From positions 11,154 through 75,153 of IMG/VR virus record IMGVR_UViG_3300033070_001583: a stretch of 64,000 nucleotides of DNA; one strand, given 5' to 3'. Below, one piece after another: positions 25,928 through 63,855 of this stretch (the stretch's first letter is position 1; every line of letters begins with the position of its first letter). This stretch comes from a virus. Lineage: Duplodnaviria; Caudoviricetes. Under the pieces are notes generated by a model. That model was not told where the DNA came from and searched no databases. It was given only the letters and a program-made list of their open reading frames with translations. The translations under genes were made by a program, and so were the position numbers.

Positions 25928-25959
25928 CGGAATCTTGCGTACAGTATTGCCAACAGTAC

Positions 25960-47126: not shown

Positions 47127-47564
47127 AGAGCGCTCGATCAGAAGCTGAGTTCTCGAGACTGAGAACAACTCTTCAATCTGCTCCCAAGTTACGTCACGAT
47201 CATCACTAAACACTTGGATCTTGCTCCAGTCTAGATGATTGCACCAATGAGGAAATCCTCGGGCACGATATGCAGTCCAATCCGGAGAGTATCCAGAAGC
47301 AATGATTGTTGCAAGCAGAGCAGATAGTGCAAGGATCATTCCCATGCCATCGCCTTTCCCGGCTTTGATAACTGCACCAACGATCGAATGATGCGTTGCC
47401 CACCATTCACCTGGGACGGGATTCCTGTGAATAAAGCTTTCAAACGGGCCCTTGTAAAGTGAAACGTCACCTTTGATATGACGTTTTCCGCAGTCAAGAA
47501 TTCTTTCTGCTTTGATGAGAATGTCGTATGCACGAGAAGACGGAGTCTTATCTTTTTTTGACAT
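47109..47564 (-). CDS. Hypothetical protein
   Basis: ORF track; chained with neighbouring minus-strand genes. Confidence 0.6.
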   Translation of the reverse strand: MSKKDKTPSSRAYDILIKAERILDCGKRHIKGDVSLYKGPFESFIHRNPVPGEWWATHHSIVGAVIKAGKGDGMGMILALSALLATIIASGYSPDWTAYRARGFPHWCNHLDWSKIQVFSDDRDVTWEQIEELFSVSRTQLLIERSSIHDS

Positions 47565-47976
47565 CTAATTCACCGGGAGTCATGTCAGGAGGTGGTTCGG
47601 GATAGAACCGCTTGCGCTTTTTCTTTTGATTTTTGGAAGCGCTATGAGGAGATTTTACGATGCTGATATCGAGTCTCCTTCCACACACATCAAGAGCTAG
47701 CTCTTCATTGTACCAGCCAATCTCTTTTTTATCTCCTTCGCCTCTCGATAGCAAAAAAGCCTTCGTAATCTCGCCGCCCGATTGAAGTATGTCGATACCG
47801 ATACCTTCGAATTCTTTTTCTTCGAATCCCTGAAGAATCACACGAGTCGTGTATCCCAAATCAGAGAATTTCTTGTCTGTCTTCTTACGAAGATATGCGT
47901 GTACGCTGATGACATCATCGACAAGACAAAGAATCGTGGGCTCGTGGAGAAGATTCCGAAATTTGTATGTGATCAT
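47548..47976 (-). CDS. Hypothetical protein with basic C-terminus
   Basis: ORF track. Confidence 0.6.
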   Translation of the reverse strand: MITYKFRNLLHEPTILCLVDDVISVHAYLRKKTDKKFSDLGYTTRVILQGFEEKEFEGIGIDILQSGGEITKAFLLSRGEGDKKEIGWYNEELALDVCGRRLDISIVKSPHSASKNQKKKRKRFYPEPPPDMTPGELDVKKR

Positions 47977-48007: not shown

Positions 48008-48244
48008 TTACACTTCTTGCTTCCAAAGTTTCCATTCATAGTTCGTTTCGCTTGAACAGATATCGCATTTTACTGAGAAACCTGATGGTATCTTACTCAC
48101 ATGGAGTTTCTCAGGATGCCATGGGTTATCAGGGCATTTACATCCAGAGATCCGAATTTCAGCGATTATTTGGCTGAAGAGATCTTCTGTTTTACCGTTC
48201 AATTTCTCTATCAGGCTGCTGAGAGTAAATGTTTTCTTTTCCAC
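48008..48244 (-). CDS. Small protein with an N-terminal FTLSSLIE motif and Cys/His residues
   Basis: GTG start preceded by TACAAT plus 6 nt; N-terminal peptide identical to that of 55117..55959. Confidence 0.65.
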   Translation of the reverse strand: MEKKTFTLSSLIEKLNGKTEDLFSQIIAEIRISGCKCPDNPWHPEKLHVSKIPSGFSVKCDICSSETNYEWKLWKQEV

Positions 48245-49370: not shown

Positions 49371-49762
49371 GGAGTACCTCCAAGCTTTCTGATCTCTGCA
49401 TTAACATTGAGTCCAAGAGATTCAAGCTTTGTCTTGTGATCCCTGAGCGAAGCGATTACCCAGTCAACTCCATCCTTCTGCAAACCTGTACCATCCATCC
49501 AGAACGTTTTTAGTTCCCAAGATCTGTAACCCGCGATCCATCGATGTTCGCAACTCAGAAAGCAAGGTCTCTGTTCATATCTGAATTCGAATGTATACGA
49601 ATATTTTTCCGGAGATTCAGACGGTGGCGCCACAGACTGGGATGTTTGAGACACTGGCGGTGTAACTCCCCATCCAAGAGGATGAGGAGAGAACCCTCCG
49701 AGTCCAGGATACCCACCGATTCCTCCGATATTTTGTGCTCCAGTGCACCACTGTGCTGACAT
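49367..49762 (-). CDS. Hypothetical protein with Gly/Pro-rich N-terminus
   Basis: ATG at 49762 lies 6 nt after a perfect TATAAT. Confidence 0.6.
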   Translation of the reverse strand: MSAQWCTGAQNIGGIGGYPGLGGFSPHPLGWGVTPPVSQTSQSVAPPSESPEKYSYTFEFRYEQRPCFLSCEHRWIAGYRSWELKTFWMDGTGLQKDGVDWVIASLRDHKTKLESLGLNVNAEIRKLGGTP

Positions 49763-49768
49763 ACACAC

Positions 49769-49774
49769 ATTATA
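49769..49774 (-). promoter_or_regulatory. -10 element TATAAT, leaderless geometry
   Basis: Minus strand reads TATAAT-gtgtgt-ATG(49762); no clear -35. Confidence 0.5.
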
Positions 49775-49800
49775 TTAATTGCGGAGCTAATTATACCAAG

Positions 49801-50175
49801 ATGTCTCTAGGAAACCCAAAATCAGGATTTGGAATGGTACCCGAATACCAAGTCTCTGCTCTACCATGGATTACTGCGTCGACGCTCCCGGTAGGTGGAG
49901 TCGTTCACAGATTTCCATGGGCAACGCAATATTTTACACTGCAAAACGACTCCGCTTCTGTTATTAACGTAGGATTTTCTCCAAGTGTGACAGGATCTAA
50001 ATATTTTCCAGTTGGCGTGTCCGGATCGCTTTCGCTTGATGTACGTATAGTCAATTTGTATCTTACAGGTACGGCCGGTTCGCAATATTCACTCTTCGCT
50101 GGGCTGACGACGATTGACAGAACAATGTCACCAAATTTGCTGATTGAGCTTATGCCATCTGGATCGTCGATATGA
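49801..50175 (+). CDS. Small beta-rich protein, probably virion
   Basis: G.G.VPEYQVSALPWIT start; begins a plus-strand structural-like block. Confidence 0.65.
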   Translation: MSLGNPKSGFGMVPEYQVSALPWITASTLPVGGVVHRFPWATQYFTLQNDSASVINVGFSPSVTGSKYFPVGVSGSLSLDVRIVNLYLTGTAGSQYSLFAGLTTIDRTMSPNLLIELMPSGSSI

Positions 50176-50348
50176 AGAAAAAAATACGTACAATATCGAG
50201 AATTCAATATTTTAATTCTCGATATTCTATAGTTGGATATCTTGGATCATCGCAAGTAACTCAAACAACGCCGCCGCCTGAAAATCTTTTGATTACAGAA
50301 AGTGGTGATTTTATTTCTACTGAATCCGGAGATTTGATAAAGACATGA
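50172..50348 (+). CDS. 58-aa protein missed by the ORF track
   Basis: Translated by hand: MKKKIRTISRIQYFNSRYSIVGYLGSSQVTQTTPPPENLLITESGDFISTESGDLIKT. ATGA overlaps at both ends; LITESGD repeat as seen in phage fibre-associated proteins. Confidence 0.7.
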   Translation: MKKKIRTISRIQYFNSRYSIVGYLGSSQVTQTTPPPENLLITESGDFISTESGDLIKT

Positions 50349-51589
50349 CGAACGTAAAAATAACAGATCTGCCATCCGCATCGCTTCCGCTATCTGATGC
50401 AGAAATAGCCGTACTTGTACAGTCTGGTGTAACAAAACAAGTAAGCGTATCAAATTTTGGTAGCGCATCTTTGGCAGCGCATATTGCGGCGTCAGATCCG
50501 CATACTGTTTATGCGCTAACAGCATCGCTAGCTGGTACGATCAACCAAGCAATGATTGCTCACAATTCTGCATCGAATCCCCATACGCAGTATGTACTGA
50601 CGAGCTCACTTCCAATTAACAATTTTCTTGCAGTTACGCCTCCAACCGTTTCTAATGACAGTACGCAAGGATATACGACTGGATCACGATGGATTGACGT
50701 GAGCGGTTCTCTTGCATGGACGTGTCAAAGCGCCGCCGCGGGCTCGGCTAACTGGATCTTGAATGGATCCAGAGCAAACGTGTACACAGTTCCGGGATCG
50801 TATACGTGGACAAAACCCGCTTACGCAAGATCAGTAGAAGTCGTAATGATAGGAGGCGGCGGGGGCGGGGGATCAGGAAGACGCGGTCTTGCAGGTACGG
50901 TGCGCTCCGCTGGAGCCGGCGGTGGAGGAGGAGGAAGATCTGAGACTACGATTCCTGCATCTGCGCTAGGAGCGACTGAAACGGTAATCGTCGGAATAGG
51001 TGGTCCTGGTGGAGCTGCGATTGCAGTTGACTCTACAAACGGTGCTGCTGGTACTGCCGGAGGTACATCAAGTTTTGGAACAGGCACGACTATTGTGCGT
51101 GCAACTGGAGCCTTCGGCGGGGGTGGCGGTACCGCCGTAGCCGTAGCGGGTGGTACTGCTGGAGTAGGAGAGCTCGCCGGCGCGGCTGGTGGAGGATCAA
51201 GCGCAACTGGAGCTGCAGGTACTGTTGGAGCAGCGAGCCCCGGCGGAGGAAGCGGTGGTGGCGGGGGCGGAGGAATCACGACCGCAAACGTAGCAAGCGC
51301 CGGCGCTGCCGGCGGAGCTCGAGCAACAATGTGGGGATCTACGACTGGAGGTACTGCTGGCGGGGCTGGAGTTGCCGGTGGGGCCGGCCCATCTGCGGCG
51401 GTTGGATATCCCGCCGGTGGGGGCGGTGGAGGAGGGGGGGGAGCTGCGCTAGCAGCTCCAGCAGCCGCTGGTGGTACTGGAGGGAACTACGGTGCAGGCG
51501 GTGGAGGAGGAGGAGCTAGCGAAAATGGTTTCGCATCTGGAGCTGGCGGCGCTGGCGCCGGCGGAATTGTTGTCGTTATCTCATGGTAA
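50345..51589 (+). CDS. Glycine-rich tail fibre / decoration protein
   Basis: VKITDLP start; two H..A.(D/N)PHT.Y repeats; YTWTKP...VEVVMIGGGGGGGSG and a long Gly/Ala-rich tail. Confidence 0.82.
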   Translation: MTNVKITDLPSASLPLSDAEIAVLVQSGVTKQVSVSNFGSASLAAHIAASDPHTVYALTASLAGTINQAMIAHNSASNPHTQYVLTSSLPINNFLAVTPPTVSNDSTQGYTTGSRWIDVSGSLAWTCQSAAAGSANWILNGSRANVYTVPGSYTWTKPAYARSVEVVMIGGGGGGGSGRRGLAGTVRSAGAGGGGGGRSETTIPASALGATETVIVGIGGPGGAAIAVDSTNGAAGTAGGTSSFGTGTTIVRATGAFGGGGGTAVAVAGGTAGVGELAGAAGGGSSATGAAGTVGAASPGGGSGGGGGGGITTANVASAGAAGGARATMWGSTTGGTAGGAGVAGGAGPSAAVGYPAGGGGGGGGGAALAAPAAAGGTGGNYGAGGGGGGASENGFASGAGGAGAGGIVVVISW

Positions 51590-51620
51590 CACCTATATAA
51601 TACTCGGGAGATCATAGATC

Positions 51621-51968
51621 ATGGCAGCATTGGGAGATATTGTAAAGTTTACACTGACGGTTGAAAGTGCATTGCTCGACCGCCCTGCAATTGTGATGGA
51701 CGCAATGGGCGATACACTTCAACTGATGGTGTTTGTTGACGGATTGGCTGATTCGACCGGTCTTGAAGAGAACGAAAAGATCGAAAATCAGCCTGCAGTT
51801 GGCGGAAATAACGTACCAGTCAAGTGCGTTATGAGATCATCTGTTTCAAAGAACCTCACGCAGACAGCCGGGTGCTGGCGTCCCTTAGACGCTAGAGAGT
51901 CTCGCTTCTTAAATGCACAATGGGACTTCGAATCGAAGTCCCATTGTGCATTTAAGCCTCTAATCTGA
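51621..51968 (+). CDS. Hypothetical protein
   Basis: GGGAG RBS and TATAAT upstream. Confidence 0.65.
   Translation: MAALGDIVKFTLTVESALLDRPAIVMDAMGDTLQLMVFVDGLADSTGLEENEKIENQPAVGGNNVPVKCVMRSSVSKNLTQTAGCWRPLDARESRFLNAQWDFESKSHCAFKPLI
51908..51956. terminator. 23-bp perfect inverted repeat (3-nt loop) at a convergent gene junction; bidirectional terminator or processing hairpin
   Basis: CTTAAATGCACAATGGGACTTCG-aat-CGAAGTCCCATTGTGCATTTAAG. Confidence 0.7.
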
Positions 51969-52809
51969 ACTTGCGTCTCTTACCCGTTGGATGAATCAGG
52001 ATGAGATCATTCGAGAAACAGACAGATCCGTCAATCTGAGCTCCTTCTGGTATGACAGAGTCCAAATCGAGAGCGCATCCGCTTCCATCTGTCACGTCGC
52101 AGTAAATGTCCCAGCTGTAAGCGCAGGACCACTCTACGAATTCAGCATCTGTGAGGTGATACTCATGCTTGTCTTGAAGCTTATTTAGCAGCACGTCAAT
52201 CAGTCTGTTAAGCTTCGTTCCAGTCAGACGTAGCCCACTGTATGCCGCAGGGTCTCCAGCGAGATACGAGTCATTCGCGAGCTTATCTGTGTTCCTTCTT
52301 GTTGCAGGGACATATTGCGCATTTTTGAGACGGTCCGGAGGATTAAACATATGCGTTGTCGCAATCCCACGACCAGAAGTTTTGAACTCAGGCACCCAGA
52401 CAGTACCTGCCGGAGAGAGATAGTTCTGATGCGTCTCATACGTGCCCTTTGAGCGTGTTACTGAATCGATGAGACTGGAAAGCTTATTCAAGAAAGTTTC
52501 AGCAGGCAAGAGATCTGTTTCAAGATCTTGATTCATTGAAAAATTCAATGTATATGAAACTTTGTCATAATTGCCAGCAGGTCTCTTCTCTTCAAATCCG
52601 GTGTGTAGGTAGTAAGTGTATCCTGCAGCGTCAAGAGCTTTATTTACGATCTGTTGGAACGTGTTCTCGTCAATCGTAATGAGACGTTTCGGTAGTCTCT
52701 CGGCAGCTGCAAGAATCTCTTGAAAATACTTACGACGAGCCCATACATCGTCTCCAGCTTGCCCAGGTGGTTCTGATTCGAGAATCAGATTCTTTAGTGT
52801 ATGATTCAT
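51952..52809 (-). CDS. Tandem paralogue family member A (unknown function)
   Basis: MNHTLKNLILE; GTVWVPEFKTSGRG; EFVEW; HPTGKRR. Confidence 0.8.
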   Translation of the reverse strand: MNHTLKNLILESEPPGQAGDDVWARRKYFQEILAAAERLPKRLITIDENTFQQIVNKALDAAGYTYYLHTGFEEKRPAGNYDKVSYTLNFSMNQDLETDLLPAETFLNKLSSLIDSVTRSKGTYETHQNYLSPAGTVWVPEFKTSGRGIATTHMFNPPDRLKNAQYVPATRRNTDKLANDSYLAGDPAAYSGLRLTGTKLNRLIDVLLNKLQDKHEYHLTDAEFVEWSCAYSWDIYCDVTDGSGCALDLDSVIPEGAQIDGSVCFSNDLILIHPTGKRRKFRLEA

Positions 52810-53576
52810 TTGTAGCTCTTCTTTCTTCCTGTTGGTGATGTAATCACGTATCCATTGAGCTGCACTTGAATCTGTCCAACTGCTTTCGTTGGAAGCGGAT
52901 CATCCCATTCAATTTCATTTTCATCTTCGTCAACAAAATATGCTGAATCCGTGAGCGACATAATCACATTCCACTCGACAATGTCGAAATCTGTGATATC
53001 ATACTCTCGCTTCTTTGGTAGCGAAGTAATTGTAGCAAAAGATCTAAACTCATCTGAAAGAAAGAAATCAGTATTTTTCCCAGATACGTCAGCCGGATCG
53101 TCTGATTGCGATATGAGAGCTAGCTCTCTGTCCGACGGCTTCGGTTGGCCGTAATTGTTCGCAGCATCGTCATAATGTATCACACCACGAGATAGCGTGC
53201 GGAAAACAGGAACGCTGATTGTGCCGCCCTTCCATACGGGGGAGCCTTCAGAATCTGAATAGAGTGGCTTTCCCAAAAGAGATGAGAGACCTTTTATGAT
53301 CTTATTACTGACGTCTCCAGTGGAAAGATCTGTAACTCCGTGCACGAATACATTACACGAACACAGTATATCCGTTGATTGCTCGTCAACGGTGAATGTG
53401 TCATCTGGCAGCACACGTTTGATGACACTAAAAATTTCGTGACTCTCTGGTGGACGACGAAGACGCGTTGCTCTACGCGAAAGTTCGTAAGCATTGTGAG
53501 CCGTAAGATACCGATTCGTAATACGGTCGTCATCATCGGGACCCTCTGCGATCAGAGAGCGAAGCGTATAGATCAT
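52806..53576 (-). CDS. Tandem paralogue family member B
   Basis: MIYTLRSLIAE; GTISVPVFRTLSRG; DIVEW; SPTGRKK. Confidence 0.8.
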   Translation of the reverse strand: MIYTLRSLIAEGPDDDDRITNRYLTAHNAYELSRRATRLRRPPESHEIFSVIKRVLPDDTFTVDEQSTDILCSCNVFVHGVTDLSTGDVSNKIIKGLSSLLGKPLYSDSEGSPVWKGGTISVPVFRTLSRGVIHYDDAANNYGQPKPSDRELALISQSDDPADVSGKNTDFFLSDEFRSFATITSLPKKREYDITDFDIVEWNVIMSLTDSAYFVDEDENEIEWDDPLPTKAVGQIQVQLNGYVITSPTGRKKSYK

Positions 53577-53582
53577 CTCAGA

Positions 53583-54344
53583 CTATAAATAATCTACTCG
53601 AACTCTCTTACCTGTCCATCCATCTAGTTTGAGATCAGAGACAGTCAAAAAGAGAGAAAGATCTCCGCTACTCGTATCTGCGCCGATGCTAACCTGCAGT
53701 TTGCATGACACTGCGCACTCTTCAAGTTCTCTACAAAGTGGATCATCCTTGTGTTCAGCTCTCAGATTTGATACCGCGACAAGATAAGGAGCCTCTCGTG
53801 AAAAGTCTGCAGTCGAGAGATTAAAAGCGTCCCTTGCAAAAAAAATCGGCTCGATATGACACTCATTTCCTCTTGGAAACGAAATAACAGGAAGCCAGAG
53901 AGTTCCCATACTCATGTTACAGTTGAAATCTGCGAAATCTGATTCCTGTTGCTCAATGAAATCGCTAGCGCGGAAACGTTTTGCAACGGCCTTGAGCGCA
54001 TCTCTTGCATCTGGGATACTGTATCGTGTACCTGTCACATCAACATTCGTGTAATAAGAAGAGTGTGCATCAGCCACATCTATTTGTTGGTGTACACTCG
54101 GGCTCAGAGCTCTCTGACAAGCTCGAGTTATCTGTACAACAAGATTTTTGTGGTACGGTACATCAGATATCTCGTAACAGTCTGTAAGTTTCCACTTTTC
54201 AACGATCGAGCGGTTCAGAGGATGTCTTGCGACTCTCTGAACAATGTAATTTATCCACTCTTTACGTTGATTCGGAGTATCGTCGGCATTTAGAGAATAA
54301 CCCTCACGAAGTAGCGAACTCAATGAGTATTGAAGCATACTCAT
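53583..54344 (-). CDS. Tandem paralogue family member C
   Basis: QYSLSSLLRE; GTLWLPVISFPRGN; LRAEHKDD; LEE; WTGKR. Confidence 0.8.
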   Translation of the reverse strand: MSMLQYSLSSLLREGYSLNADDTPNQRKEWINYIVQRVARHPLNRSIVEKWKLTDCYEISDVPYHKNLVVQITRACQRALSPSVHQQIDVADAHSSYYTNVDVTGTRYSIPDARDALKAVAKRFRASDFIEQQESDFADFNCNMSMGTLWLPVISFPRGNECHIEPIFFARDAFNLSTADFSREAPYLVAVSNLRAEHKDDPLCRELEECAVSCKLQVSIGADTSSGDLSLFLTVSDLKLDGWTGKRVRVDYL

Positions 54345-55117
54345 AAATAACTCACTGCAATCCGTTTCCCTGTTGACCCTCGGGTGATACAGTCGGTCAT
54401 TGTGAGACCGAAGATAATCGTCTGCGGTTGAACCTCCATAACATTCAGGAAGAGTGTGACAGTGACATCATACTCCTCAAGCGCGTTACAGTGAGGATCA
54501 TCCTTGTATCCCGGTCTCAGAGCTCCAATGGCTTCAAAGAAAGGAGTTAGAGGGTCATAAATTCCCTGACCAGGCCTGGATGGTATTCCAAGGTTATGTC
54601 TTATATCGGATGTATCTCGCGTCCATGGAATCTGTACCTCGTCTCCACGTGTTAGTGTCAGGACAGGAAGCCATATCGAACCAACGTTGATGTCGACAAG
54701 CTTGAGTACGCCATGACCAGAGACGCCTTCGACCTTCAAACTCTTCGAGAGTTCACGGATACAGGCGTCGACAATCTGATTCACAGATGACTCTGTCCTA
54801 AGGACACTGGAGTACGAGCTGTTATACCCAAGCCGTCTATATTGTTCAGCGGTATCGGAAACGATACGGTGCCGTCTCAGAGCTCGCTTTACTGAAGATA
54901 CAACAGATTGAAATAGCTCGTTAACAGTGGCACTGTCATTGCACTTATCTTTGAACTTCTGATCAAGACAGAACCTGTGAATCGTATTTCGATTAAGCGG
55001 ATGAGATCGTACTCGTTCCATGACATGACGTGCCCACTCTCTCCGAGCTAGCAAGATATCCTGTGGAGTCGCATCTGACTCGTCGTCAATGAGCGATTCA
55101 AGCGTTATGTGTGACAT
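54341..55117 (-). CDS. Tandem paralogue family member D
   Basis: HITLESLIDDE; GSIWLPVLTLTRGD; LRPGYKDD; LEEY; STGKR. Confidence 0.8.
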   Translation of the reverse strand: MSHITLESLIDDESDATPQDILLARREWARHVMERVRSHPLNRNTIHRFCLDQKFKDKCNDSATVNELFQSVVSSVKRALRRHRIVSDTAEQYRRLGYNSSYSSVLRTESSVNQIVDACIRELSKSLKVEGVSGHGVLKLVDINVGSIWLPVLTLTRGDEVQIPWTRDTSDIRHNLGIPSRPGQGIYDPLTPFFEAIGALRPGYKDDPHCNALEEYDVTVTLFLNVMEVQPQTIIFGLTMTDCITRGSTGKRIAVSYL

Positions 55118-55959
55118 CAGAAATCCGCAGGAATTCTATTCCCAATAGAACCCAGTGCTATGAGACTGTGACCGGTCGTTATAGATACTGTCAATGTGCC
55201 GTCCGTTTGTGCTGCAAAGTATACAGCGAACGTTACGCCTACAGAATACTCTTCAAGTTCGTCAACTCTTGGAGTGTCTTTTGCATCTGGTCTGAGTGCA
55301 CTAACAGCACCGAGATATCCAACTGTGTCTCCGGGCTCCGTAGAAAGAACACGTATGAGAGTTGGAGACTTTGAAACATCTGTGGCGGTTATGATCGGCG
55401 TCTCATCATTTCCGCGAGAGAGCGTGAGAACTGGCAAGAGAAGCGTACCAAGCTCATACATAAAAGTGTAACTCCCACCAGCACCCGCAGTACGTGTTGC
55501 GTACGCCTGCTGTTGAACCGGAGTCAAACCATTTGGCATTTTAGGAATGGGCTGTACGACTTCTTCATATCCGAGAGACGAGATACGAGAATGAATTCGT
55601 TCTCTCAGTTCTTGAGCCTCATCTGGTGCGTAAGAAGATGTCCAGTAATAAGGAAGTCCCTCTGCATTGTATGACATCGGCTCGAGCGTTGGCATATGAG
55701 ACATAATGTTCGAGAGCGTACGCATCACTCTGTAGTATCCAGGAGCCTTTGGACCGACGAATCTCTCTTTCCCAGCGTCGAGATTCCAGTCCTTGACCAG
55801 CTTTCTGTTGTGAGGGAGACTTAGAGTACGTTTGAGAACGTATTTCATCCACCGCTCTCTACCAGCAGGTTCAAGAGCCCTCAACTCTTCCGGTGTCTCC
55901 TCGCCAGTTAGCAGAGTATCACGAGCTTCAATGAGCGAGCTTAGCGTAAAGTCTGACAT
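55117..55959 (-). CDS. Tandem paralogue family member E
   Basis: DFTLSSLIE; GTLLLPVLTLSRGN; LRPDAKD; LEEY; SIGNR. Confidence 0.8.
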   Translation of the reverse strand: MSDFTLSSLIEARDTLLTGEETPEELRALEPAGRERWMKYVLKRTLSLPHNRKLVKDWNLDAGKERFVGPKAPGYYRVMRTLSNIMSHMPTLEPMSYNAEGLPYYWTSSYAPDEAQELRERIHSRISSLGYEEVVQPIPKMPNGLTPVQQQAYATRTAGAGGSYTFMYELGTLLLPVLTLSRGNDETPIITATDVSKSPTLIRVLSTEPGDTVGYLGAVSALRPDAKDTPRVDELEEYSVGVTFAVYFAAQTDGTLTVSITTGHSLIALGSIGNRIPADF

Positions 55960-55976
55960 TCACGTATAAATATACG

Positions 55977-56669
55977 CTAAATCCACTCTCTCGTTCGACC
56001 GGTTCGATACAGGAATACTGGATCATACGTTTTCCCAAATGATATCCTGCCATTTACGGGCGTATCTGATGTCATCTCAAGATAAATCGGAGCGCCAGTG
56101 CTTGCGTCGTTAATCGATATATCAAGTGATATCTCTGTACCAAGAGCATATTCGTGATATTCAACATTAGAAAAATCATCCTTCCAGATATCTCTCAAAT
56201 CGTGATGATTTAGAAGCTCTTGACGAAGCACATCATGCGAATGTCCTACTGGATTAAAATACGTATTTCCTCTTGGGTGCTTTAGATGCGGTACAAAAAC
56301 ATTTCCCATCGTGTGTGTACACGTGAGTGATGTCGATTTCTGTCTGGTAACTGAGACGTTGGACGGTACGAGACTGTATACCTTTGCAATACGTCGTAGA
56401 ATGCTGACTGGCGTACGTTCCAGCTTTCCTACAAAGAATTCGTCATACTCGTTAACGTCAAATCCGATCTTTCTCATCGTATCTGAAAGAGTCAATTTCA
56501 AACGAGTTGAAATATTATCTGCCCATTCTCGTTCTTTCCCTGCGAGAATCTCTATTCTTTCCTCTACGCGAGAAAGAACATATTTTACGTATACGTTTCT
56601 TCCGATATTACGATCGTTACAATTATCTGATTCTGCAATGAGTTTATTAATCGTGTACATTTTATTCAA
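55977..56669 (-). CDS. Tandem paralogue family member F (start probably ATG 56660)
   Basis: MYTINKLIAE; GNVFVPHLKHPRGN; LRDIWKDD; YHEY; RTGRTR. Confidence 0.8.
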   Translation of the reverse strand: MNKMYTINKLIAESDNCNDRNIGRNVYVKYVLSRVEERIEILAGKEREWADNISTRLKLTLSDTMRKIGFDVNEYDEFFVGKLERTPVSILRRIAKVYSLVPSNVSVTRQKSTSLTCTHTMGNVFVPHLKHPRGNTYFNPVGHSHDVLRQELLNHHDLRDIWKDDFSNVEYHEYALGTEISLDISINDASTGAPIYLEMTSDTPVNGRISFGKTYDPVFLYRTGRTREWI

Positions 56670-57400
56670 ATACTCTCCCGTACGCGGCCAGTTGGATACA
56701 GGTAAACAGGAAAAATGCTTCTGACACCAATCGAAACTGTACCATCGACATTTGTTCCATCGTCGGTCAGATCATCATAGCTCAGAGTTACAAACATCCC
56801 ATCAGGTGTCTCTTCAACAATCGAACACGAGATTGAGATCTCAGAACCAAGCGTCCACTCATGGTACTCGACTCCAATAAGATCATCTTTGTGATCAGGT
56901 CTCAGCTTGCTAACAGCAATATTCAGCTTCGAACCCAGTTCAGACAGAGACATCCCCGTCGGGTCGATTTCAAGCTTATTTCCACGTGGGTGCAAGAAAA
57001 CGGGTACCCATGCATGCCCCGATGAATGAGTTGCAACCATCGTGTTTGTGATTCCATTTGCTTCTAGATCCCCTTGTCTGAGACCGAGACCCTTGCAGAT
57101 TCCACGGATTACTTGCGAGGGTGAGACCGGTAGAGATACGCTACGAAACTGGTATGCAGCGTGTTGATACTCGGTCTCTCTGATACCCATACGTGCAAGT
57201 ATTCGCGGCACCGTGCTCCGCAGAGTTTTAGGAAACTGAATTGCCCACTCTCTTGCTGCGGGATAATCCCTGTCTCCGCTCCTCCGAGCTCGATTGAGAG
57301 CATGGAGACTGTAGTCACCGCGTCCATCGAGATGAGTCGGTTCACTCTCATCGTCTGATTCGCCCTCACTGATGAGCCGTGAGAGGGTATGGTCGGTCAT
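56666..57400 (-). CDS. Tandem paralogue family member G
   Basis: DHTLSRLISE; GHAWVPVFLHPRGN; LRPDHKDD; YHEW; PTGRVR. Confidence 0.8.
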   Translation of the reverse strand: MTDHTLSRLISEGESDDESEPTHLDGRGDYSLHALNRARRSGDRDYPAAREWAIQFPKTLRSTVPRILARMGIRETEYQHAAYQFRSVSLPVSPSQVIRGICKGLGLRQGDLEANGITNTMVATHSSGHAWVPVFLHPRGNKLEIDPTGMSLSELGSKLNIAVSKLRPDHKDDLIGVEYHEWTLGSEISISCSIVEETPDGMFVTLSYDDLTDDGTNVDGTVSIGVRSIFPVYLYPTGRVRESI

Positions 57401-58065
57401 GGTTTGTCGAAGCTCTTTCCTGTTTGAGATATGAGACAGCAGTCTGCTGACGAAGTGATCAGCTTACCTGCGCCCTGATCTACGTGACATTTCGAGTAAA
57501 ATCTTGGTCCGACCGTCCATTCCTTCCATACGACAGAAACAGGATCGTCTTTCCTGAGTGGTCTGAGTTCTCGCAAACGATCTCGCATGTTTCTGGCGGT
57601 CCCAACGAGTGATGTCCTTGCGGGATCGAAATTGTAGATATCTCCTCGTGCAAGGATGATTTCCGGAAAGAACGTTTTTTTCGTCTCAAGATATCCGATC
57701 GTGTATCCAGTGATATTTTTTTCGATGTCTTTAATTCCCATCTGTCTGAGAGTGTGAGTACAAAATTGATCTGGAGTCATCTCGAATTCTGACGCTGTGA
57801 AGTCTATGCCGAACTCTGTTCTGTTCTCAACGTGCGTGTATGTTCCACATCCCGCCACAAGCCGAGAGAGCCAGTCATCATTGTAAAGAGTTTTCGCACA
57901 TATACGATCTGCTCTCTCGACACTGAGGGATTCGATTCTCTCGTATTCTCGAATGATATCCCATGAGAGAACAGATTTCATCCAATTATCTCTTCCAACG
58001 AGATCTGTTTCCTCGTCTCTTCCTCTGGCTTCTGTTATGAGACCTCGTAGCGTATGATCTTGCAC
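57397..58065 (-). CDS. Tandem paralogue family member H
   Basis: DHTLRGLITE; FFPEIILARGD; LRPLRKDD; WKEW; QTGK. Confidence 0.8.
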   Translation of the reverse strand: MQDHTLRGLITEARGRDEETDLVGRDNWMKSVLSWDIIREYERIESLSVERADRICAKTLYNDDWLSRLVAGCGTYTHVENRTEFGIDFTASEFEMTPDQFCTHTLRQMGIKDIEKNITGYTIGYLETKKTFFPEIILARGDIYNFDPARTSLVGTARNMRDRLRELRPLRKDDPVSVVWKEWTVGPRFYSKCHVDQGAGKLITSSADCCLISQTGKSFDKP

Positions 58066-58082
58066 GGGTTAAATACTCTGTT

Positions 58083-58727
58083 TCACATCAATCGCGTTCT
58101 AATACCCGCATCGATTTGCATTTTTGGCTGCTGAGCTAGCGAGATTGACATATCTGTTGCAGTGCCACCCTTTGAATGGACGCTGAGAGTTACGGTAAGA
58201 GAACAAACTGTCTGCCACTCCAATAGCCTGAAACCCGAGAGATCGTCTTTTTGATGAGGTCTCAGCTCTTCGATCTTGCGTAGCATTGCAGATTTAGCGC
58301 TGCTCACAAGATCACCGGTGGGATCATAATCGAACACATTCCCCCGGGGGTGGTAAAATTCGGGAAGCCACCGTTTGCCGGTTGGAACATCACAAACTCC
58401 GTAGATTGACTCTGGAAAAATCGATACCTTGCTCAGCCCAAATGGGAGCTCTTTTGCGATTTTCGCCCACACACGGTTTGGTGAAACATCGGGAAGATTC
58501 TTCTCTGATCTGACTCCTGTCGGAGTGATCTGCGAAATGAATCCCAGAGATTGGAAGCTCCTCACGAGAGCTCTAGAGCACTCAGAGACACCTCGATCGT
58601 ACGCTCCCAGAGTGTCTCTCTTTCCCGAGCGGAGGTCAGCGAGCTTGAATGCATGGTTGGCATAGTCCAGTCTCTGTGCTCTCGTGTCAGAGGTGTCTTC
58701 GACGAGGGATCTCAGTGTGTGGGTCAT
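58083..58727 (-). CDS. Tandem paralogue family member I (start 58727, GAGGA RBS)
   Basis: MTHTLRSLVE; GKRWLPEFYHPRGN; LRPHQKDD; LLEW. Confidence 0.8.
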   Translation of the reverse strand: MTHTLRSLVEDTSDTRAQRLDYANHAFKLADLRSGKRDTLGAYDRGVSECSRALVRSFQSLGFISQITPTGVRSEKNLPDVSPNRVWAKIAKELPFGLSKVSIFPESIYGVCDVPTGKRWLPEFYHPRGNVFDYDPTGDLVSSAKSAMLRKIEELRPHQKDDLSGFRLLEWQTVCSLTVTLSVHSKGGTATDMSISLAQQPKMQIDAGIRTRLM

Positions 58728-59404
58728 TTCCTCATAAATAACGCCAACCACTCTCTCACCCGCCCAGTTGGGCCTGTGTACACGCAGGGTGAGGTTTGCA
58801 AGAAGAGACACCCGGTGTAGTGACCCTCTGTGCTCTCAACCCCCTCAATGAGTCCCCCATCAGAATCCGAGAGCTGGAGAGTAAGTTCAATCTCTGTACC
58901 AATCCTCCACTCGTGGATGAGAATCTTTCCAGGCGAGTCCTTCCAACTCACCCTCCTCCGACGGAGCACAGTCTCGGTGAGCACATCGAGCACTGCAGGA
59001 GAGTGACCGGTTGGATCAATCTCGAGAGTGTCTCCACGGGGAAGAGAGAACGATGGTACCCACCCCCTGCCCCCACATGAGAGAGTGTGGGAGAGCGCGA
59101 GCACTCCCGGGAGGGGCTCTCTCACTCTGGCACCAGAGAGACCGAGGAGCTTGACAAGCCTCCGCAAGAGACCCAGAGGGCTCACAGAGGGAGCTCCCCC
59201 GGGGGCAGAGATCTCGCTATCATGAATGAGAGACCTGTCCCACTCGTACAGAGAGGCAAGTCTCACGAGGGACCGGTCCCAGCGCAGGGTCAGCTCTCTG
59301 GCAAGATCCCGCTCCCTTGCGAGGCCGGTGTTCATGAGTCCAAGGGCCGATGAGACCTCTCTGGCAAGAGAGTCACAGTCTGTGTTGCTTCCATAGGGTG
59401 CCAT
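58724..59404 (-). CDS. Tandem paralogue family member J (GC-rich; alternative GTG start at 59440)
   Basis: GRGWVPSFSLPRGD; WKDS; IHEW; PTGRVR. ATG at 59404 lies 7 nt after a promoter -10 box. Confidence 0.72.
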   Translation of the reverse strand: MAPYGSNTDCDSLAREVSSALGLMNTGLARERDLARELTLRWDRSLVRLASLYEWDRSLIHDSEISAPGGAPSVSPLGLLRRLVKLLGLSGARVREPLPGVLALSHTLSCGGRGWVPSFSLPRGDTLEIDPTGHSPAVLDVLTETVLRRRRVSWKDSPGKILIHEWRIGTEIELTLQLSDSDGGLIEGVESTEGHYTGCLFLQTSPCVYTGPTGRVREWLALFMRK

Positions 59405-59411
59405 CGTTACA

Positions 59412-59440
59412 CTTATACCACAGAGGGTGTGGGTTTGCAC
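59412..59440 (-). promoter_or_regulatory. Repeated early-type promoter (copy 1)
   Basis: GTGCAA-17-TATAAG, ATG 7 nt downstream. Confidence 0.6.
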
Positions 59441-59461
59441 CGGTGATACACAAGCAACCTG

Positions 59462-59595
59462 TACACGCTCAAAATTTCTCTGGAAAAAATTTCGAAATTT
59501 CGATGACCCGTACAGACTCAAAATTTCTCTGGAAAAAATTTCACTGTACAGTGACCCGTACGGCTTCAAATCTGCTCCAGAAAAAATTTCACTGT
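59462..59595. repeat. About 2.7 copies of a 48-49-bp direct repeat (non-coding)
   Basis: CTCAAAATTTCTCTGGAAAAAATTTC identical at 59468-93 and 59517-42; AAAAAATTTCACTGT at 59533-47 and 59581-95; TGACCCGTAC twice. Confidence 0.85.
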
Positions 59596-59639
59596 TTCAC
59601 CTGGTGGGCCAGAGCCCCAGCGGCCCCACACACCTTGGC

Positions 59640-59730
59640 CTAGGGGGGTACCCCGGGGCCTGGGGGGTAAAGTGGGGGGCCCCTCCCCGGGGCCCCGTAT
59701 GGGCTAGCCAGGGGCCCCAGCTGGGGTATC
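59640..59730. other. G/C homopolymer-rich tract with G-quadruplex pattern and short palindromes
   Basis: G6-N6-G4-N3-G6-N6-G6 at 59643-59679; GGGGTACCCC and CCCCGGGG palindromes. Confidence 0.6.
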
Positions 59731-59797
59731 TGCGCGCTCCTCCCTGTGGTCCGAGGGTCCGAGATTTCTGAACTGTGTTGCACTGTCCATCTCGCTG

Positions 59798-59826
59798 GTG
59801 CAACCGGTTCGCTGGGGTGGTATAAC
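59798..59826 (+). promoter_or_regulatory. Repeated early-type promoter (copy 2)
   Basis: GTGCAA-17-TATAAC. Confidence 0.75.
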
Positions 59827-59873
59827 TGAATCATGGTGGGGAGGAAGGTCCCTCCCCCGCGGAAAGGTACACA

Positions 59874-60179
59874 ATGCGTCTTGGTCCTACGGCTCGCAAA
59901 ATCCTCCGCCTGCTCGCTCTTGGTCCCGCCACCTCGCGGGTGCTCCGTGATGCACTGCGCCCTGCAGGTTGCACCGCGAGCTGGGGTAACTCGTACTTCC
60001 TCCCCGCCACCTCGGGTGCAAACGGGTTCAGCTCCTCTCTCCGCCGCCGGGGTCTCATCATGCCGGTGGGCAAGACCGCGAGGGGTGCAACGGTGTGGGG
60101 TCTCACTCCCCTCGCCGAGACCGTTCACCCCCGGTTACCCCCGCAGGTTCAGTGCAACCCACCCCGCAGAAGTGTATAA
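59874..60179 (+). CDS. Small basic protein, winged-helix-like pattern
   Basis: GGAAAGG RBS; ARKILRLLA...LRRRGLI...GATVWGLT pattern. Confidence 0.55.
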   Translation: MRLGPTARKILRLLALGPATSRVLRDALRPAGCTASWGNSYFLPATSGANGFSSSLRRRGLIMPVGKTARGATVWGLTPLAETVHPRLPPQVQCNPPRRSV

Positions 60180-60180
60180 C
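60152..60180 (+). promoter_or_regulatory. Repeated early-type promoter (copy 3)
   Basis: GTGCAA-17-TATAAC, then AAGGAG RBS and ATG 60203. Confidence 0.78.
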
Positions 60181-60202
60181 TAGAAAGTAAGGAGAATCAA
60201 TC

Positions 60203-60565
60203 ATGGAAAACATCACCGCCCCCAACACCTCGTACTTCGCTCAGGTCACCGGCTACACCACCCCCTCCGGCCGGCGTGCTCCGCGGAAGGGTGCGGAACT
60301 CGAGGCCTTCAAGGCCCAGCTCGCGGCCGATCGCGCTGCCCGTCAGGCCATCCGCGAGGCTCGGGGGCTCAAGCGGCCCGGGCCGAAGCCGGTCACGGAC
60401 TCTGCCCACGCCCCCGTGGCTCCCGAGCAGGTGACGGTCCGCTCGGTGGTGAGCGAGTTCGGCAACCCCAAGGCGAAGAACACCACCAAGGAGTTCCTCC
60501 GGGTGCTCAAGGAGGCCGGTCTGGCCAAGTTAGGCTGGTGCAACCCACTGGCTGCCATGGTATAA
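60203..60565 (+). CDS. Small basic early protein with strongly GC3-biased codons
   Basis: Own promoter and AAGGAG RBS. Confidence 0.8.
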   Translation: MENITAPNTSYFAQVTGYTTPSGRRAPRKGAELEAFKAQLAADRAARQAIREARGLKRPGPKPVTDSAHAPVAPEQVTVRSVVSEFGNPKAKNTTKEFLRVLKEAGLAKLGWCNPLAAMV

Positions 60566-60566
60566 C
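60538..60566 (+). promoter_or_regulatory. Repeated early-type promoter (copy 4)
   Basis: GTGCAA-17-TATAAC; the -10 contains the TAA of the upstream gene. Confidence 0.75.
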
Positions 60567-60621
60567 TCTATCATGGTGGCCAGTGGCCACCCCATGCAAC
60601 CCTAACGGAAGGACACACCGC

Positions 60622-60972
60622 ATGATGCCAGAAGAAAAGTTTCTCGCCCACGGACCCGATGCAGCGACCATGGAGATTGTCAGGAAAAATTTCCTTGACA
60701 AAGACACCGACCCGTTTCTCTTCATCACGGTTTATTTTCCCAAAACTTCAGACCGTGGGGTGAGGGTTTCTCACAAGCTGGAGTTTTATATGAGGGAGGA
60801 CGGTGAGCGGCCCGATTTCGATGCCTGGCTCGTGCACATGGAAGAGTTGGGATGGAAATTTCCCAATGATTTTCTGGACCCCTTAGGGTCCGGTGACAGG
60901 GGAGGGAGGGGAGAGTGCCGACTCTCCCCTTGCGCTGTTGGAAGGACTGGGAGACACAATGAGCGAACGTGA
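60622..60972 (+). CDS. Hypothetical early protein
   Basis: AAGGA RBS before ATG 60622. Confidence 0.6.
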   Translation: MMPEEKFLAHGPDAATMEIVRKNFLDKDTDPFLFITVYFPKTSDRGVRVSHKLEFYMREDGERPDFDAWLVHMEELGWKFPNDFLDPLGSGDRGGRGECRLSPCAVGRTGRHNERT

Positions 60973-61165
60973 CATGATGGCCGAACTGTTGGAGGAACTC
61001 CGGGACGCTGAGGCGCGGATCTCCCGTGTGTGGGACCGTCTCTATGAGAGGGACCCGAATATTTCCCTCGAAAGTTCAACCGGGAAGGCCGAGGACATCA
61101 TCAGACGGATCAGGGCATTGAAACTTTCCCTGAGAGAATCCGAACCTCCGGTCAGGATTCGCTGA
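60959..61165 (+). CDS. Small coiled-coil early protein
   Basis: GGGAG RBS before ATG 60959. Confidence 0.65.
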   Translation: MSERDMMAELLEELRDAEARISRVWDRLYERDPNISLESSTGKAEDIIRRIRALKLSLRESEPPVRIR

Positions 61166-61176
61166 CCGGTTCTTGT
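61148..61176 (+). terminator. Probable intrinsic terminator
   Basis: CCGGTCAG-gattcg-CTGACCGG followed by TTCTTGT. Confidence 0.55.
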
Positions 61177-61183
61177 CCGGCGC

Positions 61184-61470
61184 AAGGAAGATTCCGACAG
61201 ATCGTCTCCTGGCCTCGGTGGGCCAGAGAGGTGAGCGGAATCTTTTCGTCGTTTAAATCACAGCACGCTCCGGTGAGGAGGATACCCAGGAGAGACTCCA
61301 GGTCACTCTCCGCCAGAGTCCCTCAGATCCGTGTGGGAGTCTGCATCCACTTTTCCGAGTCTCACGGGAGAGTGACCTCGGTGAGGAGAGAGCCGGTACG
61401 GAGCTCTGTGTAGAGTTGGGAAGAGAGGGAGATTCCACCGGGAAAAGATTCCTCGGAAAGATCTCCCTCG
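61184..61470. ncRNA. Candidate structured non-coding element (three long stems)
   Basis: Stems 61188-96/61236-44 (9 bp, with inner 6-bp stem), 61300-11/61367-78 (12 bp) and 61425-33/61461-69 (9 bp); no convincing ORF. Confidence 0.35.
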
Positions 61471-61481
61471 GTGCAAGAGTC

Positions 61482-61787
61482 TCAGTGAGTCCGAGAGGTG
61501 ACCACCCTTACACCCTTGAGACTTTCTCTCACAAGTTTCCGATACCTCCTGTACTCCCTCAAGTGGTCAGAACGTTTTCCCGGAGAGTTCAGTGCCCACT
61601 TTGCGTAGTAGTACTCCATCAACATGTCTGAGATGTCTTGCACGAGGGACCCACTGTGCTGGATTCCAATCTCAGACAGGAGACTCCTCACACCCATCTG
61701 AGTGGTGTCACGTTCAGAGAGTAGGAGATCACGCTCAGCAAGAACGCGTTCGAGCAGAGCGAATGCAGAGACGGGTTTTGCCACCAT
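61482..61787 (-). CDS. Hypothetical early protein
   Basis: Follows 61791..62075 closely. Confidence 0.6.
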   Translation of the reverse strand: MVAKPVSAFALLERVLAERDLLLSERDTTQMGVRSLLSEIGIQHSGSLVQDISDMLMEYYYAKWALNSPGKRSDHLREYRRYRKLVRESLKGVRVVTSRTH

Positions 61788-61790
61788 GAG

Positions 61791-62075
61791 TCAACCATAC
61801 CTCACCGGAGAGAGACTTGCACTGGGAGAGTGGGAAATTTCCGAGGGAAACTCTCCTAACCCGCCAGCTCCTATGAGGTTCGAAAGAGAGGGTCCAAGGG
61901 ATCCGAACTCTTCTGCAGTGAGAGTGAAGTCCCTGTATGGATGCGCTGTGCTGAGAGTCACGAATCCACCTGCAGGGTCATCGTGCTGTGCTACCAGGTA
62001 CTCTCCGGTCTCTATGACACCATCCCTCAGAGTGATCAGGCAGATGGCACGGTGGTACGAGTATCGCGTTTTCAT
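61791..62075 (-). CDS. Hypothetical early protein (leaderless)
   Basis: ATG 6 nt after promoter copy 5. Confidence 0.7.
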   Translation of the reverse strand: MKTRYSYHRAICLITLRDGVIETGEYLVAQHDDPAGGFVTLSTAHPYRDFTLTAEEFGSLGPSLSNLIGAGGLGEFPSEISHSPSASLSPVRYG

Positions 62076-62081
62076 GATTCA

Positions 62082-62110
62082 GATATACCTTGGAATGAGG
62101 AACGTTGCAC
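62082..62110 (-). promoter_or_regulatory. Repeated early-type promoter (copy 5)
   Basis: GTGCAA-17-TATATC-6-ATG. Confidence 0.75.
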
Positions 62111-62341
62111 TCACATGAATGAGTCGAAGTCAATCTCGAGAGCAGGTTCAAGGTTCTCGTAAGCGGGGCGGAGTGCCCTCAACGCGGCTTCAATCTCGAA
62201 GATATCGTCCTCGTTGTCCCTCCTCGGACGCTCACGCTGCTGATCGGAGAGTTCCCTCAACCTCTTACGGCACTCAGAACGCTGGGATTCGATTGCACTG
62301 CGAGCTGCATTGATGATGTTTGCAAACTCTTCGTTCTTCAT
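62111..62341 (-). CDS. Small coiled-coil early protein (leaderless)
   Basis: ATG 62341 lies 6 nt after promoter copy 6. Confidence 0.72.
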   Translation of the reverse strand: MKNEEFANIINAARSAIESQRSECRKRLRELSDQQRERPRRDNEDDIFEIEAALRALRPAYENLEPALEIDFDSFM

Positions 62342-62347
62342 GGTCCA

Positions 62348-62376
62348 GTTATAACTCACACCGAGAGGTGTTGCAC
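62348..62376 (-). promoter_or_regulatory. Repeated early-type promoter (copy 6)
   Basis: GTGCAA-17-TATAAC-6-ATG. Confidence 0.8.
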
Positions 62377-62766
62377 TCAGAGGTCATAGGAGAGGTGAGG
62401 TTCCCCGGGAGACCATTCCCTCCCGGGTTTCACCACAAAGGACCTCAGAGGCCGCTCCATTCGTACCTTGAATACCTTTGGCTTGGGTCTCTCCGACCTC
62501 AGAGCACGCCCACTCTGTGTCTCCTCTGGGGCCTCTGTGGGGTCGGTATCCCGAGCTCTGGGAGGTACCGGCACGCTCTCGGGCTCGAGCACAATGCTCA
62601 GGTGGAATCTCTCACCGTTAGCATCAGTGCAAGTGAACGCCGGGCATGCTCCGCCTCCAACTCCAGCGAGGTGTCCCGTGAGAGATGAGATGAGCTCGAA
62701 TGCCTCTCGTTTTGAGACGCCAAGAGCCTTGTACGTACCGTCAGATTTGATATAAGTGAGTCTCAT
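62377..62766 (-). CDS. Hypothetical early protein
   Basis: Coupled to the stop of 62769..63107; its TGA abuts the next -35. Confidence 0.7.
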   Translation of the reverse strand: MRLTYIKSDGTYKALGVSKREAFELISSLTGHLAGVGGGACPAFTCTDANGERFHLSIVLEPESVPVPPRARDTDPTEAPEETQSGRALRSERPKPKVFKVRMERPLRSFVVKPGREWSPGEPHLSYDL

Positions 62767-62768
62767 GT

Positions 62769-63107
62769 TTAGATTCCAGCTCCCATGTCAGTGAAAGGAG
62801 GCTCGAGCTGCTTGTACCCTACCTCTGTGTAACGGTGAATGACCATCATTCTGGCGAGCTTGTGAGCCTCATCCCAATCCCGTGCAGATCCCTCCTTGAT
62901 GAGACCCCCTGCTCCACAGCAGCTGCGGTAGTACTGCACGCTCACACCCTTGTGATACGTATCGCGCAAGTATATGCTCCCATTCACTCTGAGACGCGCA
63001 CCATCTTGGTTACGTTCAGTCACATCGAGTGTCTTGCACCCGCACTCGCAGTAATCGAGAGTCACCGTAACAGCGAGAGTGAAGGTGAGATTCGTATTCG
63101 TTCCCAT
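62769..63107 (-). CDS. Early protein, CxCGCKTL family (leaderless)
   Basis: VTVTLDYCECGCKTL; paralogue of 63500..63817. Confidence 0.75.
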   Translation of the reverse strand: MGTNTNLTFTLAVTVTLDYCECGCKTLDVTERNQDGARLRVNGSIYLRDTYHKGVSVQYYRSCCGAGGLIKEGSARDWDEAHKLARMMVIHRYTEVGYKQLEPPFTDMGAGI

Positions 63108-63110
63108 GGT

Positions 63111-63464
63111 TCAGTCTACCACTTTCACCGGAGTCTTGCACCACCCATCCGGAGGAGTCCACCCAGCTGCGAGAGCACGCTTTTCCCACTCTTGCATCTT
63201 CTTGGGCAATTGAGGCAGACGACCCTCCCAATCGCAGTGATAGCACCGTGCACTGCACGGGAGAGTGTGGGTTTCACCGTGATCCGGCTCATCATACCCT
63301 GGGACGTCGAAATCACAGTTGCAAACAATACCTTCACACGTGCTGGAGTGGCTGTAAAGATGACCGTGAGCTTTACACTTGCCATCCCCACCCTTGCCGT
63401 GCTTGCCAGGCGTTGCTCCGCACTTGGGACACTCGAACTCGAACCGTCGTGGTGTGGCTGTCAT
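63111..63464 (-). CDS. Cys/His-rich putative Zn-binding early protein (leaderless)
   Basis: CPKC...CKAH...CEGIVCNC...CSARCYHC. Confidence 0.75.
   Translation of the reverse strand: MTATPRRFEFECPKCGATPGKHGKGGDGKCKAHGHLYSHSSTCEGIVCNCDFDVPGYDEPDHGETHTLPCSARCYHCDWEGRLPQLPKKMQEWEKRALAAGWTPPDGWCKTPVKVVD
63113..63141 (-). promoter_or_regulatory. Repeated early-type promoter (copy 7)
   Basis: GTGCAA-17-TAGACT-5-ATG. Confidence 0.72.
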
Positions 63465-63470
63465 GGTCTC

Positions 63471-63499
63471 AGTATACTCCCCGAGAGGGTGGATTGCAC
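63471..63499 (-). promoter_or_regulatory. Repeated early-type promoter (copy 8)
   Basis: GTGCAA-17-TATACT-6-ATG. Confidence 0.8.
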
Positions 63500-63817: not shown

Positions 63818-63823
63818 GGTCTG

Positions 63824-63852
63824 AATATACCTTGAGCTTGGAAACATTGCAC
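63824..63852 (-). promoter_or_regulatory. Repeated early-type promoter (copy 9)
   Basis: GTGCAA-17-TATATT-6-ATG. Confidence 0.8.
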
Positions 63853-63855
63853 CGC

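Follow-up and report, generated by a model that had tools for sequence, protein, structure and literature searches.

A ten-gene paralog array in a huge T4-type phage and its candidate head-targeting peptide

Introduction

Why should a phage line up ten diverged copies of one gene? The question is posed by a 64,000-nucleotide stretch of viral DNA (the window; bases 11154-75153 of one 75,153-bp viral contig, an IMG/VR record), in which ten co-oriented, consecutive minus-strand genes, A1-A10, fill positions 51952-59404 and are joined by ATGA-type overlaps or gaps of at most 17 nt (Table 1). A reading made from the DNA letters alone (the sequence-only reading) had seen in them an unrecognised family and, by analogy with T4, candidate effectors that are packaged in the capsid and injected. 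Here we report that the ten genes are one paralog family and that nine of them start with a peptide matching the capsid-targeting sequence of T4. Whether they encode head-packaged, protease-trimmed internal proteins of a huge T4-type myovirus, which is the proposal we develop below, seems to us evenly poised.

A rare family of paralogs

Pairwise, the ten proteins are 18-34% identical, and hidden Markov models (HMMs) built from nine copies recover the tenth with 23-118 bits (E = 4e-3 to 3e-32 at Z = 1e6). When all six frames of the entire 75-kb contig were scanned with the HMM, these ten copies and no other scored below E = 0.3. The ordered motifs that the sequence-only reading had picked out in ten consecutive minus-strand frames are real: in G-x-x-W-x-P-...-R-G-[ND], the P, R and G (P-x5-R-G) are invariant in 27 of 27 aligned sequences, L-R-P-x-x-K-D-D is clear in about seven of the ten copies, the E of E-[WY] is invariant among the window copies and a C-terminal TG[KR]R is found in eight. 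With the HMM uniting all ten, one real paralog family is confirmed. Its reported want of long nucleotide repeats also holds, as the longest matches within the array are 32 nt or less and several cover conserved protein motifs such as LRPxxKDD. Starts were refined for A9 (ATG at 58727, overlapping the A10 stop) and A6 (56660), while the start claimed for A10 at 59404 is indeed an ATG, longer TTG/GTG frames being upstream read-through.

That the proteins belong to no known family is upheld by our searches. With Pfam, none of the ten copies matched a family at E <= 0.1 (bar one sub-threshold DUF883 match), PHROGs and NCBIfam gave no family for the array proteins, a profile search of PDB sequences found no match to the family, and an ESM Atlas search yielded no usable match. 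Neither megablast nor tblastn returned a significant match among 50,697 phage records, and IMG/VR scans with family members, family alignments or the gp6-like protein of the contig found no relative. Searched with the profile, 1.84 billion cluster representatives gave twenty matches, about 19 of them true, and several of the true ones are the window's own genes or orthologues of single paralogs; a 2447-aa repeat protein (P0019) was rejected as spurious since only a 39-column piece of the profile matched it, 14 times. Arrays on other source contigs are found on a 255-kb ENA contig (ERZ869929.3 NODE-3, 255,832 bp; L003 hereafter), whose synteny with the window spans tail fibres to early block, on a Logan contig of 9.9 kb (at least five members) and on a JGI contig of 5 kb (two). 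Family and array are real, rare and old.

The N-terminal peptide

The most telling shared feature is absent from the motifs of the sequence-only reading: a conserved N-terminal peptide. Its consensus, M-x(0-2)-[HYF]-[TS]-L-x-x-L-[IL]-x-E-[SGA] with an acidic stretch behind it, describes A1-A9 and altogether 29 of 36 family members, and T-L-x-x-L-I-x-E sits within their first 9-13 residues. Behind the [LIV]-x-E site of A1-A3 and A5-A9 comes S, G or A in seven copies and D in A9. Since the codons for the peptide differ between copies, it is the peptide, not the DNA, on which selection acts.

In T4, the internal proteins IPIII and IPII begin MKTYQEFIAE/A (the slash marking the cleavage position), while IPI begins MKTFKEF... 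and has a propeptide ending ITE/A (all read from NC_000866). Aligned at the Glu, the family and T4 have in common T at P8 and hydrophobic residues at P7 and P4, and they agree further in I/L at P3, E at P1 and a small residue at P1'. The T4 tag needs residues 4 and 7 (P7, P4) for targeting and residues 8 and 10 (P3, P1) for processing, the cleavage motif of gp21 being L/I-x-E (PMC9026906). The positions conserved in the family coincide exactly with these. A6 has the length and spacing of the T4 tag, with five of ten positions identical to MKTYQEFIAE, and a relative (P0004, MKTLQDLIRE/S) of the same length has six of ten.

How specific is such a short pattern? Applied in relaxed form to 1,504 candidate starts in the contig, it picked out A1-A9 and a few starts that are not genic, besides one real outsider. 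An unrelated 78-aa Cys-rich protein has an N-terminus of this kind (Table 1), and its L003 orthologue retains L-x-x-L-I and IIAE, not the first Glu; it may, weakly, qualify as a further tagged protein. The tag-like frame at 47548-47976 (MITYKFRNLLHE) was dropped, as its orthologue does not retain the pattern. Back-translated with T4 spacing, the tag pattern has three matches in T4 itself, namely ipII, ipIII and gp61.1 (NC_000866 18966-19130, minus strand; 54 aa, annotated only as hypothetical), which begins with a near-copy of the IPII/IPIII tag (MKTFKEFIKE), and none in the three distant relatives introduced below.

Phage type and packaging

The contig is about 21% complete according to CheckV, so the full genome would measure roughly 350 kb. 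It carries T4-type core genes for an SbcCD-like gp46/47 fusion, a gp61-like primase and a gp4-like head closure protein, together with PhoH, gp6-like and gp25-like baseplate wedge and gp55-like late sigma genes. The nearest sequenced phages - a 484-kb uncultured phage, Flavobacterium immuto phages and Microcystis phage Mel-JY01 - are distant, their gp6-like protein being about 30% identical, and Peptidase_S77 scores above the curated cut-off in all three of the nearest sequenced relatives (nearness judged by gp6). On the 75-kb contig, i.e. about 21% of the genome, there is no capsid, portal, scaffold or prohead protease gene, nor any match to PF03420 or PF07068. The packaging part of the sequence-only reading has hence gained a T4-like tag, a T4-type gene set and S77 in three of three relatives, which support it indirectly.

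We propose that each protein would be made with an N-terminal propeptide of 10-12 residues (T-L-x-x-L-I-x-E) and an acidic linker behind it. Acting like the capsid-targeting sequence of T4, the propeptide would dock the protein on the scaffolding core of the prohead, where a prohead protease of the S77 (gp21) type would cut past the Glu and before S, G or A. What remains in the DNA-filled head would be a mature, mostly acidic domain of 22-30 kDa (a helical hairpin plus alpha/beta sheet), which would exit with the DNA at infection.

Several points weigh against this proposal. Docking, cleavage, packaging and ejection are steps that we infer. Observed directly are the family with its peptide, the likeness of this peptide to the T4 tag, a gene set of T4 type and an array that is old and varies in copy number. 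As the contig lacks protease, capsid and scaffold genes, the phage's own cleavage rule is unreadable from it. A4 has D instead of E at the predicted cleavage position (LIDD), and Asp at position 10 of the T4 tag stops cleavage, not targeting (PMC9026906). A10 and the B6/P0022 subfamily go without the peptide, the mature proteins are mostly acidic (pI 4.7-6.7) and the family is absent from the three distant S77-bearing relatives. A short motif can also mislead, as the case of T4 gp61.1 illustrates. Last, co-transcription of the array seems to start at an early-type promoter and to meet no internal terminator.

It is this promoter, at 59440 directly upstream of A10, that leads to the main rival, in which the ten are cytoplasmic, non-packaged early proteins for anti-defence or host takeover. 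Their shared N-terminal helix would then serve for docking on a partner from host or phage, or for oligomerisation, and its likeness to the T4 tag would be convergent. We found no convincing terminator within the array, which adjoins small early genes, each with a promoter of its own, and the gene content differs between relatives, a usual trait of accessory early genes. An early role would also account for A10 and B6 working without the peptide, and T4 gp61.1, which bears the motif, is a small protein without annotated function. Against it, the peptide agrees with the T4 tag at exactly the targeting and processing positions, small P1' included, and in the A7 model it is structurally separate from the fold. 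Nor does the promoter discriminate between a packaged and a non-packaged product, since each of T4 ipI, ipII and ipIII is likewise directly preceded by a promoter-like sequence of sigma-70 type, and not by TATAAATA. Within the array, this T4 late promoter sequence has two occurrences, both on the wrong strand. An early, non-packaged role is to us a possible, albeit rather doubtful, explanation.

Promoter and array flank

By pattern match, 13 promoter-like sites of the type GTGCAA-N17-TAnnnn are present contig-wide, with an ATG 5-22 nt past the -10 box in 11 of them, and they concentrate in the GC-rich right end of the contig. Read in frame, the bases of the array promoter (59405..59440) give V-Q-T-H-T-L-C-G-I-S-V-T, a decayed N-terminal peptide of the family, so that A10 looks like a copy whose tag has been overwritten by the promoter. 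Farther upstream are three tandem units (Table 1), and a GAAATTTTTTCTGGA box similar to theirs lies upstream of the L003 array; the units are possibly regulatory, perhaps a binding site for a regulator.

Predicted structure

The AlphaFold2 (AF2) model of A7, based on 27 sequences, reaches a predicted local distance difference test (pLDDT) score of 87.7 and a predicted template modelling score (pTM) of 0.78. It consists of a helical hairpin (residues 23-70) followed by an antiparallel sheet and two helices, and residues 1-22 form a low-confidence short helix plus linker detached from the fold (pLDDT ~50 vs ~90). A1 is modelled with the same topology at pLDDT 69; its insertion of about 40 aa after the P..RG motif is disordered (residues 152-188 of the model).

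All Foldseek matches in PDB and BFVD had TM < 0.2. For VIA, the tool's stated typical best for unmatched models is Z 7-8; its exhaustive alignment peaked at Z 6.2 (LppA, DcrB) for A7 and 7.1 (PilO) for A1, and the top rows mix PilO, LppA, DcrB, other Mog1/PsbP-like proteins and tRNA-synthetase cores. Because all Z values fall inside this noise range, we call none a match. No ADP-ribosyltransferase came up in any fold search, and weak rows for a 2-oxoglutarate (2OG)-oxygenase (probability ~0.1, TM ~0.1) were dismissed. In sum, the models offer no convincing fold match and predict, with confidence, a fold without known relative. The fold check that the sequence-only reading had suggested has thereby been made with AF2, Foldseek and VIA, and it reveals no known structural or housekeeping fold.

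Among the A1 rows are about ten phage neck or tail-terminator chains at Z 4.8-6.3 and, with the array lying some 5 kb from tail-fibre genes, these might hint at neck, tail or fibre structural or assembly proteins, e.g. exchangeable adaptor, terminator-like or chaperone subunits. Yet such Z values are inside the noise range, interspersed with PilO, aminoacyl-tRNA synthetase and Mog1/PsbP-like matches, and no neck chain is among the best 50 VIA rows listed for the better A7 model. The array, moreover, is on the strand opposite the tail operon and under an early-type promoter, and we know of no precedent for ten diverged paralogs of a terminator or adaptor. This makes a neck or tail role highly improbable in our view.

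If the proteins are packaged as we propose, their mature domain could be an inner-body or DNA-organising component or an effector directed at the host. As the paralogs retain common invariant residues, we favour a partner or activity that they would share. The more specific idea of the sequence-only reading, a panel of anti-defence proteins each tuned to its own target, is a conjecture for or against which the sequences do not speak.

Evolution of the copies

In L003, the array counts seven intact copies and one frameshifted, and runs in the order A7-, A5-, A4-, A3- and A2-like, an extra untagged member, and A1-like; A6, A8, A9 and A10 have no orthologue in it. The frameshifted, shortened copy holds the first array position (L003 6776-7241) and starts M-T-N-P-G-T-L-R-A-L-K-R-E/A. 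Copy number is thus variable rather than conserved among relatives (ten vs seven plus one broken), in keeping with the sequence-only reading.

Seven of the ten window copies pair in a maximum-likelihood tree with orthologues from other phages at starred support, whereas A6 and A9 stand alone. Since the tree pairs paralogs across phages, there are about 12 subfamilies whose duplications predate the split of these phages. Orthologues are 36-78% identical in the array as opposed to 86-87% for the flanking MT-A70 and tail-fibre gene, and nonsynonymous divergence (dN) is 0.13-0.62 as opposed to 0.09 for these two. Nominal ratios of dN to synonymous divergence (dS) are 0.09-0.26, far below 1 and unreliable with dS saturated (pS 0.61-0.74), and this saturation permits no statement on positive selection. 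An expansion that is 'old or under diversifying selection', as had been suggested, is consequently old by the tree, while diversifying selection finds no backing in the saturated dS and the low nominal ratios. What the tree shows is old subfamilies that are kept under constraint.

Comparison with other packaged proteins

With the T4 proteins IPI, IPII and IPIII, the array shares an N-terminal tag of about 10 residues that has the same pattern and the L/I-x-E end, as well as genes outside the head module, an early-type promoter per locus and a content that varies among relatives. The T4 proteins differ in being three, of about 10-21 kDa and unrelated to each other beyond the tag, whereas the array encodes ten true paralogs of 22-30 kDa, mostly acidic, with invariant core residues and in one operon. 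Pfam and Foldseek searches gave no sequence or fold similarity between the two groups.

Giant phages carry tandem families of head-protein paralogs, some with conserved cleavable N-termini; family B of SPN3US has 20 members, mostly in tandem, and members of its family A share an identical N-terminal 15-mer (PMC5694885). Both families, like the phiKZ inner-body proteins (PF12699), resemble the array as large tandem arrays of diverged paralogs. Family A has, in addition, a conserved N-terminus with protease sites, and copy number in the giant-phage head families differs between related phages (PMC5694885), as it does here. No homology is seen, however, either by hhalign of our family against SPN3US gp142-153 (probability 0.2%, E = 0.34 over 9 columns) or with PF12699, which matches none of the ten copies at E <= 0.1. 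SPN3US and phiKZ also cut at A/S-x-E, not L/I-x-E, and packaging is proven for their head families, whereas that of the array is deduced from sequence.

A third case is provided by the Dar proteins of phage P1, anti-restriction proteins reported to be packaged in the head and delivered with the DNA (PMC12810830, PMC9024508). They exemplify the kind of role that the sequence-only reading had in mind for the array, albeit with no sequence relation to it and not as a paralog array.

Drawn out to its full extent, the proposal would make the array an anciently diversified, ten-member repertoire of capsid-packaged, protease-activated proteins of a new fold, injected with the DNA of a T4-type phage of about 350 kb, with subfamilies kept or dropped as a combinatorial kit for host takeover or anti-defence and with A10 turned into an untagged, early cytoplasmic form by a promoter laid over its former tag. 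This whole chain we regard as unlikely. Were packaging to hold, the targeting tag and cleavage rule of T4 would extend far beyond T-even phages to an uncultured lineage of huge phages, and packaged proteins of metagenomic phages could be recognised by a simple sequence signature. An intermediate design would also emerge, one new family both tagged and expanded tenfold, between T4, which tags few unrelated proteins, and phiKZ or SPN3US with their big, untraceable families of head paralogs. For such work, the family provides clear invariant residues and a confident predicted fold without known relative.

Table 1. Array genes and other features, in window coordinates. A slash marks the predicted cleavage position; percentages are amino acid identities to the orthologues named.
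Feature	Position	Strand	Size	N-terminus or sequence	Remarks
A1	51952..52809	(-)	285 aa	MNHTLKNLILE/S	most diverged copy; B7 in L003, 72%
A2	52806..53576	(-)	256 aa	MIYTLRSLIAE/G	leave-one-out score 23 bits; fastest-evolving copy, 36-40% to orthologue
A3	53583..54338	(-)	251 aa	MLQYSLSSLLRE/G	alternative start 54344; B4, P0009, 71-77%
A4	54341..55117	(-)	258 aa	MSHITLESLIDDES	targeting pattern retained; B3, P0011, 77-78%, LIDD too
A5	55117..55959	(-)	280 aa	MSDFTLSSLIE/A	B2, 58%; P0012, 69%
A6	55977..56660	(-)	227 aa	MYTINKLIAE/S	
A7	56666..57400	(-)	244 aa	MTDHTLSRLISE/G	better-modelled copy; P0001, 84%; B1, P0004, 52-53%
A8	57397..58065	(-)	222 aa	MQDHTLRGLITE/A	GTG start; P0013, P0027, 48%
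A9	58083..58727	(-)	214 aa	MTHTLRSLVE/D	sole basic copy (pI 9.2); without C-terminal TG[KR]R
A10	58724..59404	(-)	226 aa		first gene of array; sole copy without N-terminal peptide; P0010, 92%, likewise begins MAPYGS
78-aa Cys-rich protein, unrelated	48008..48244	(-)	78 aa	MEKKTFTLSSLIEK	N-terminus resembles family peptide; IIAE at residues 25-28
Early-type promoter	59440-59412 (with leader 59405..59440)	(-)		GTGCAA-N17-TATAAG	7-nt leader before A10 ATG
Three tandem units	59457..59590		~48 nt each	GAAATTTTTTC + GAAATTTTG boxes, minus strand	upstream of array promoter; boxes in each unit

Further observations

A2, A3, A5, A8 and A9 each have a TATTTA hexamer 4-9 nt ahead of the start codon (53591, 54349, 55972, 58075 and 58740; minus strand); counting both strands, the 75-kb contig has only 13 such hexamers, of which these are five. 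A6 has TATTTG instead, and in L003 TATTTA precedes the ATG of the broken first copy by 6 nt. The hexamer could serve as an internal promoter or in re-initiation, or it could simply result from TTA stops.

As to the latter, in-frame TTA occurs in the array genes (window 51952-59404; L003 7254-13004) only at, or at most five codons from, the annotated end: codon 283 of 285 in A1 (its sole one), 251 of 251 in A3, 258 of 258 in A4 and fifth from the end in A10. Off-frame, there are 0-8 TTA per frame and array gene; contig-wide, 19 are in frame vs 544 off frame in about 19,700 codons. Past the TTA, orthologue sequences diverge or differ in length. This distribution fits TTA acting as a stop, in which case several members would end ...Y or ...W.

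Elsewhere in the window, glycosyltransferases (GT2, GT4), UDP-galactopyranose mutase (Glf) and a radical-SAM enzyme are encoded at 12547-27216, adjoining the late sigma and baseplate genes. A plus-strand block at 49735-51968 interrupts the minus-strand early-type genes. One of its products, of 414 aa, has a Gly_rich_2 domain (PF21722, E = 2.6e-5) and no tblastn match in L003, where a 463-aa frame stands at the corresponding position. Beyond the array, window positions 59400-64000 have a GC content of 0.55-0.60 vs 0.44 elsewhere and are packed with small genes, each behind a GTGCAA-N17-TAnnnn site and with the ATG mostly 5-7 nt past the promoter, which implies near-leaderless mRNAs. This layout recalls the promoter-bearing mobile cassettes of T4-type phages (PMC2839356).

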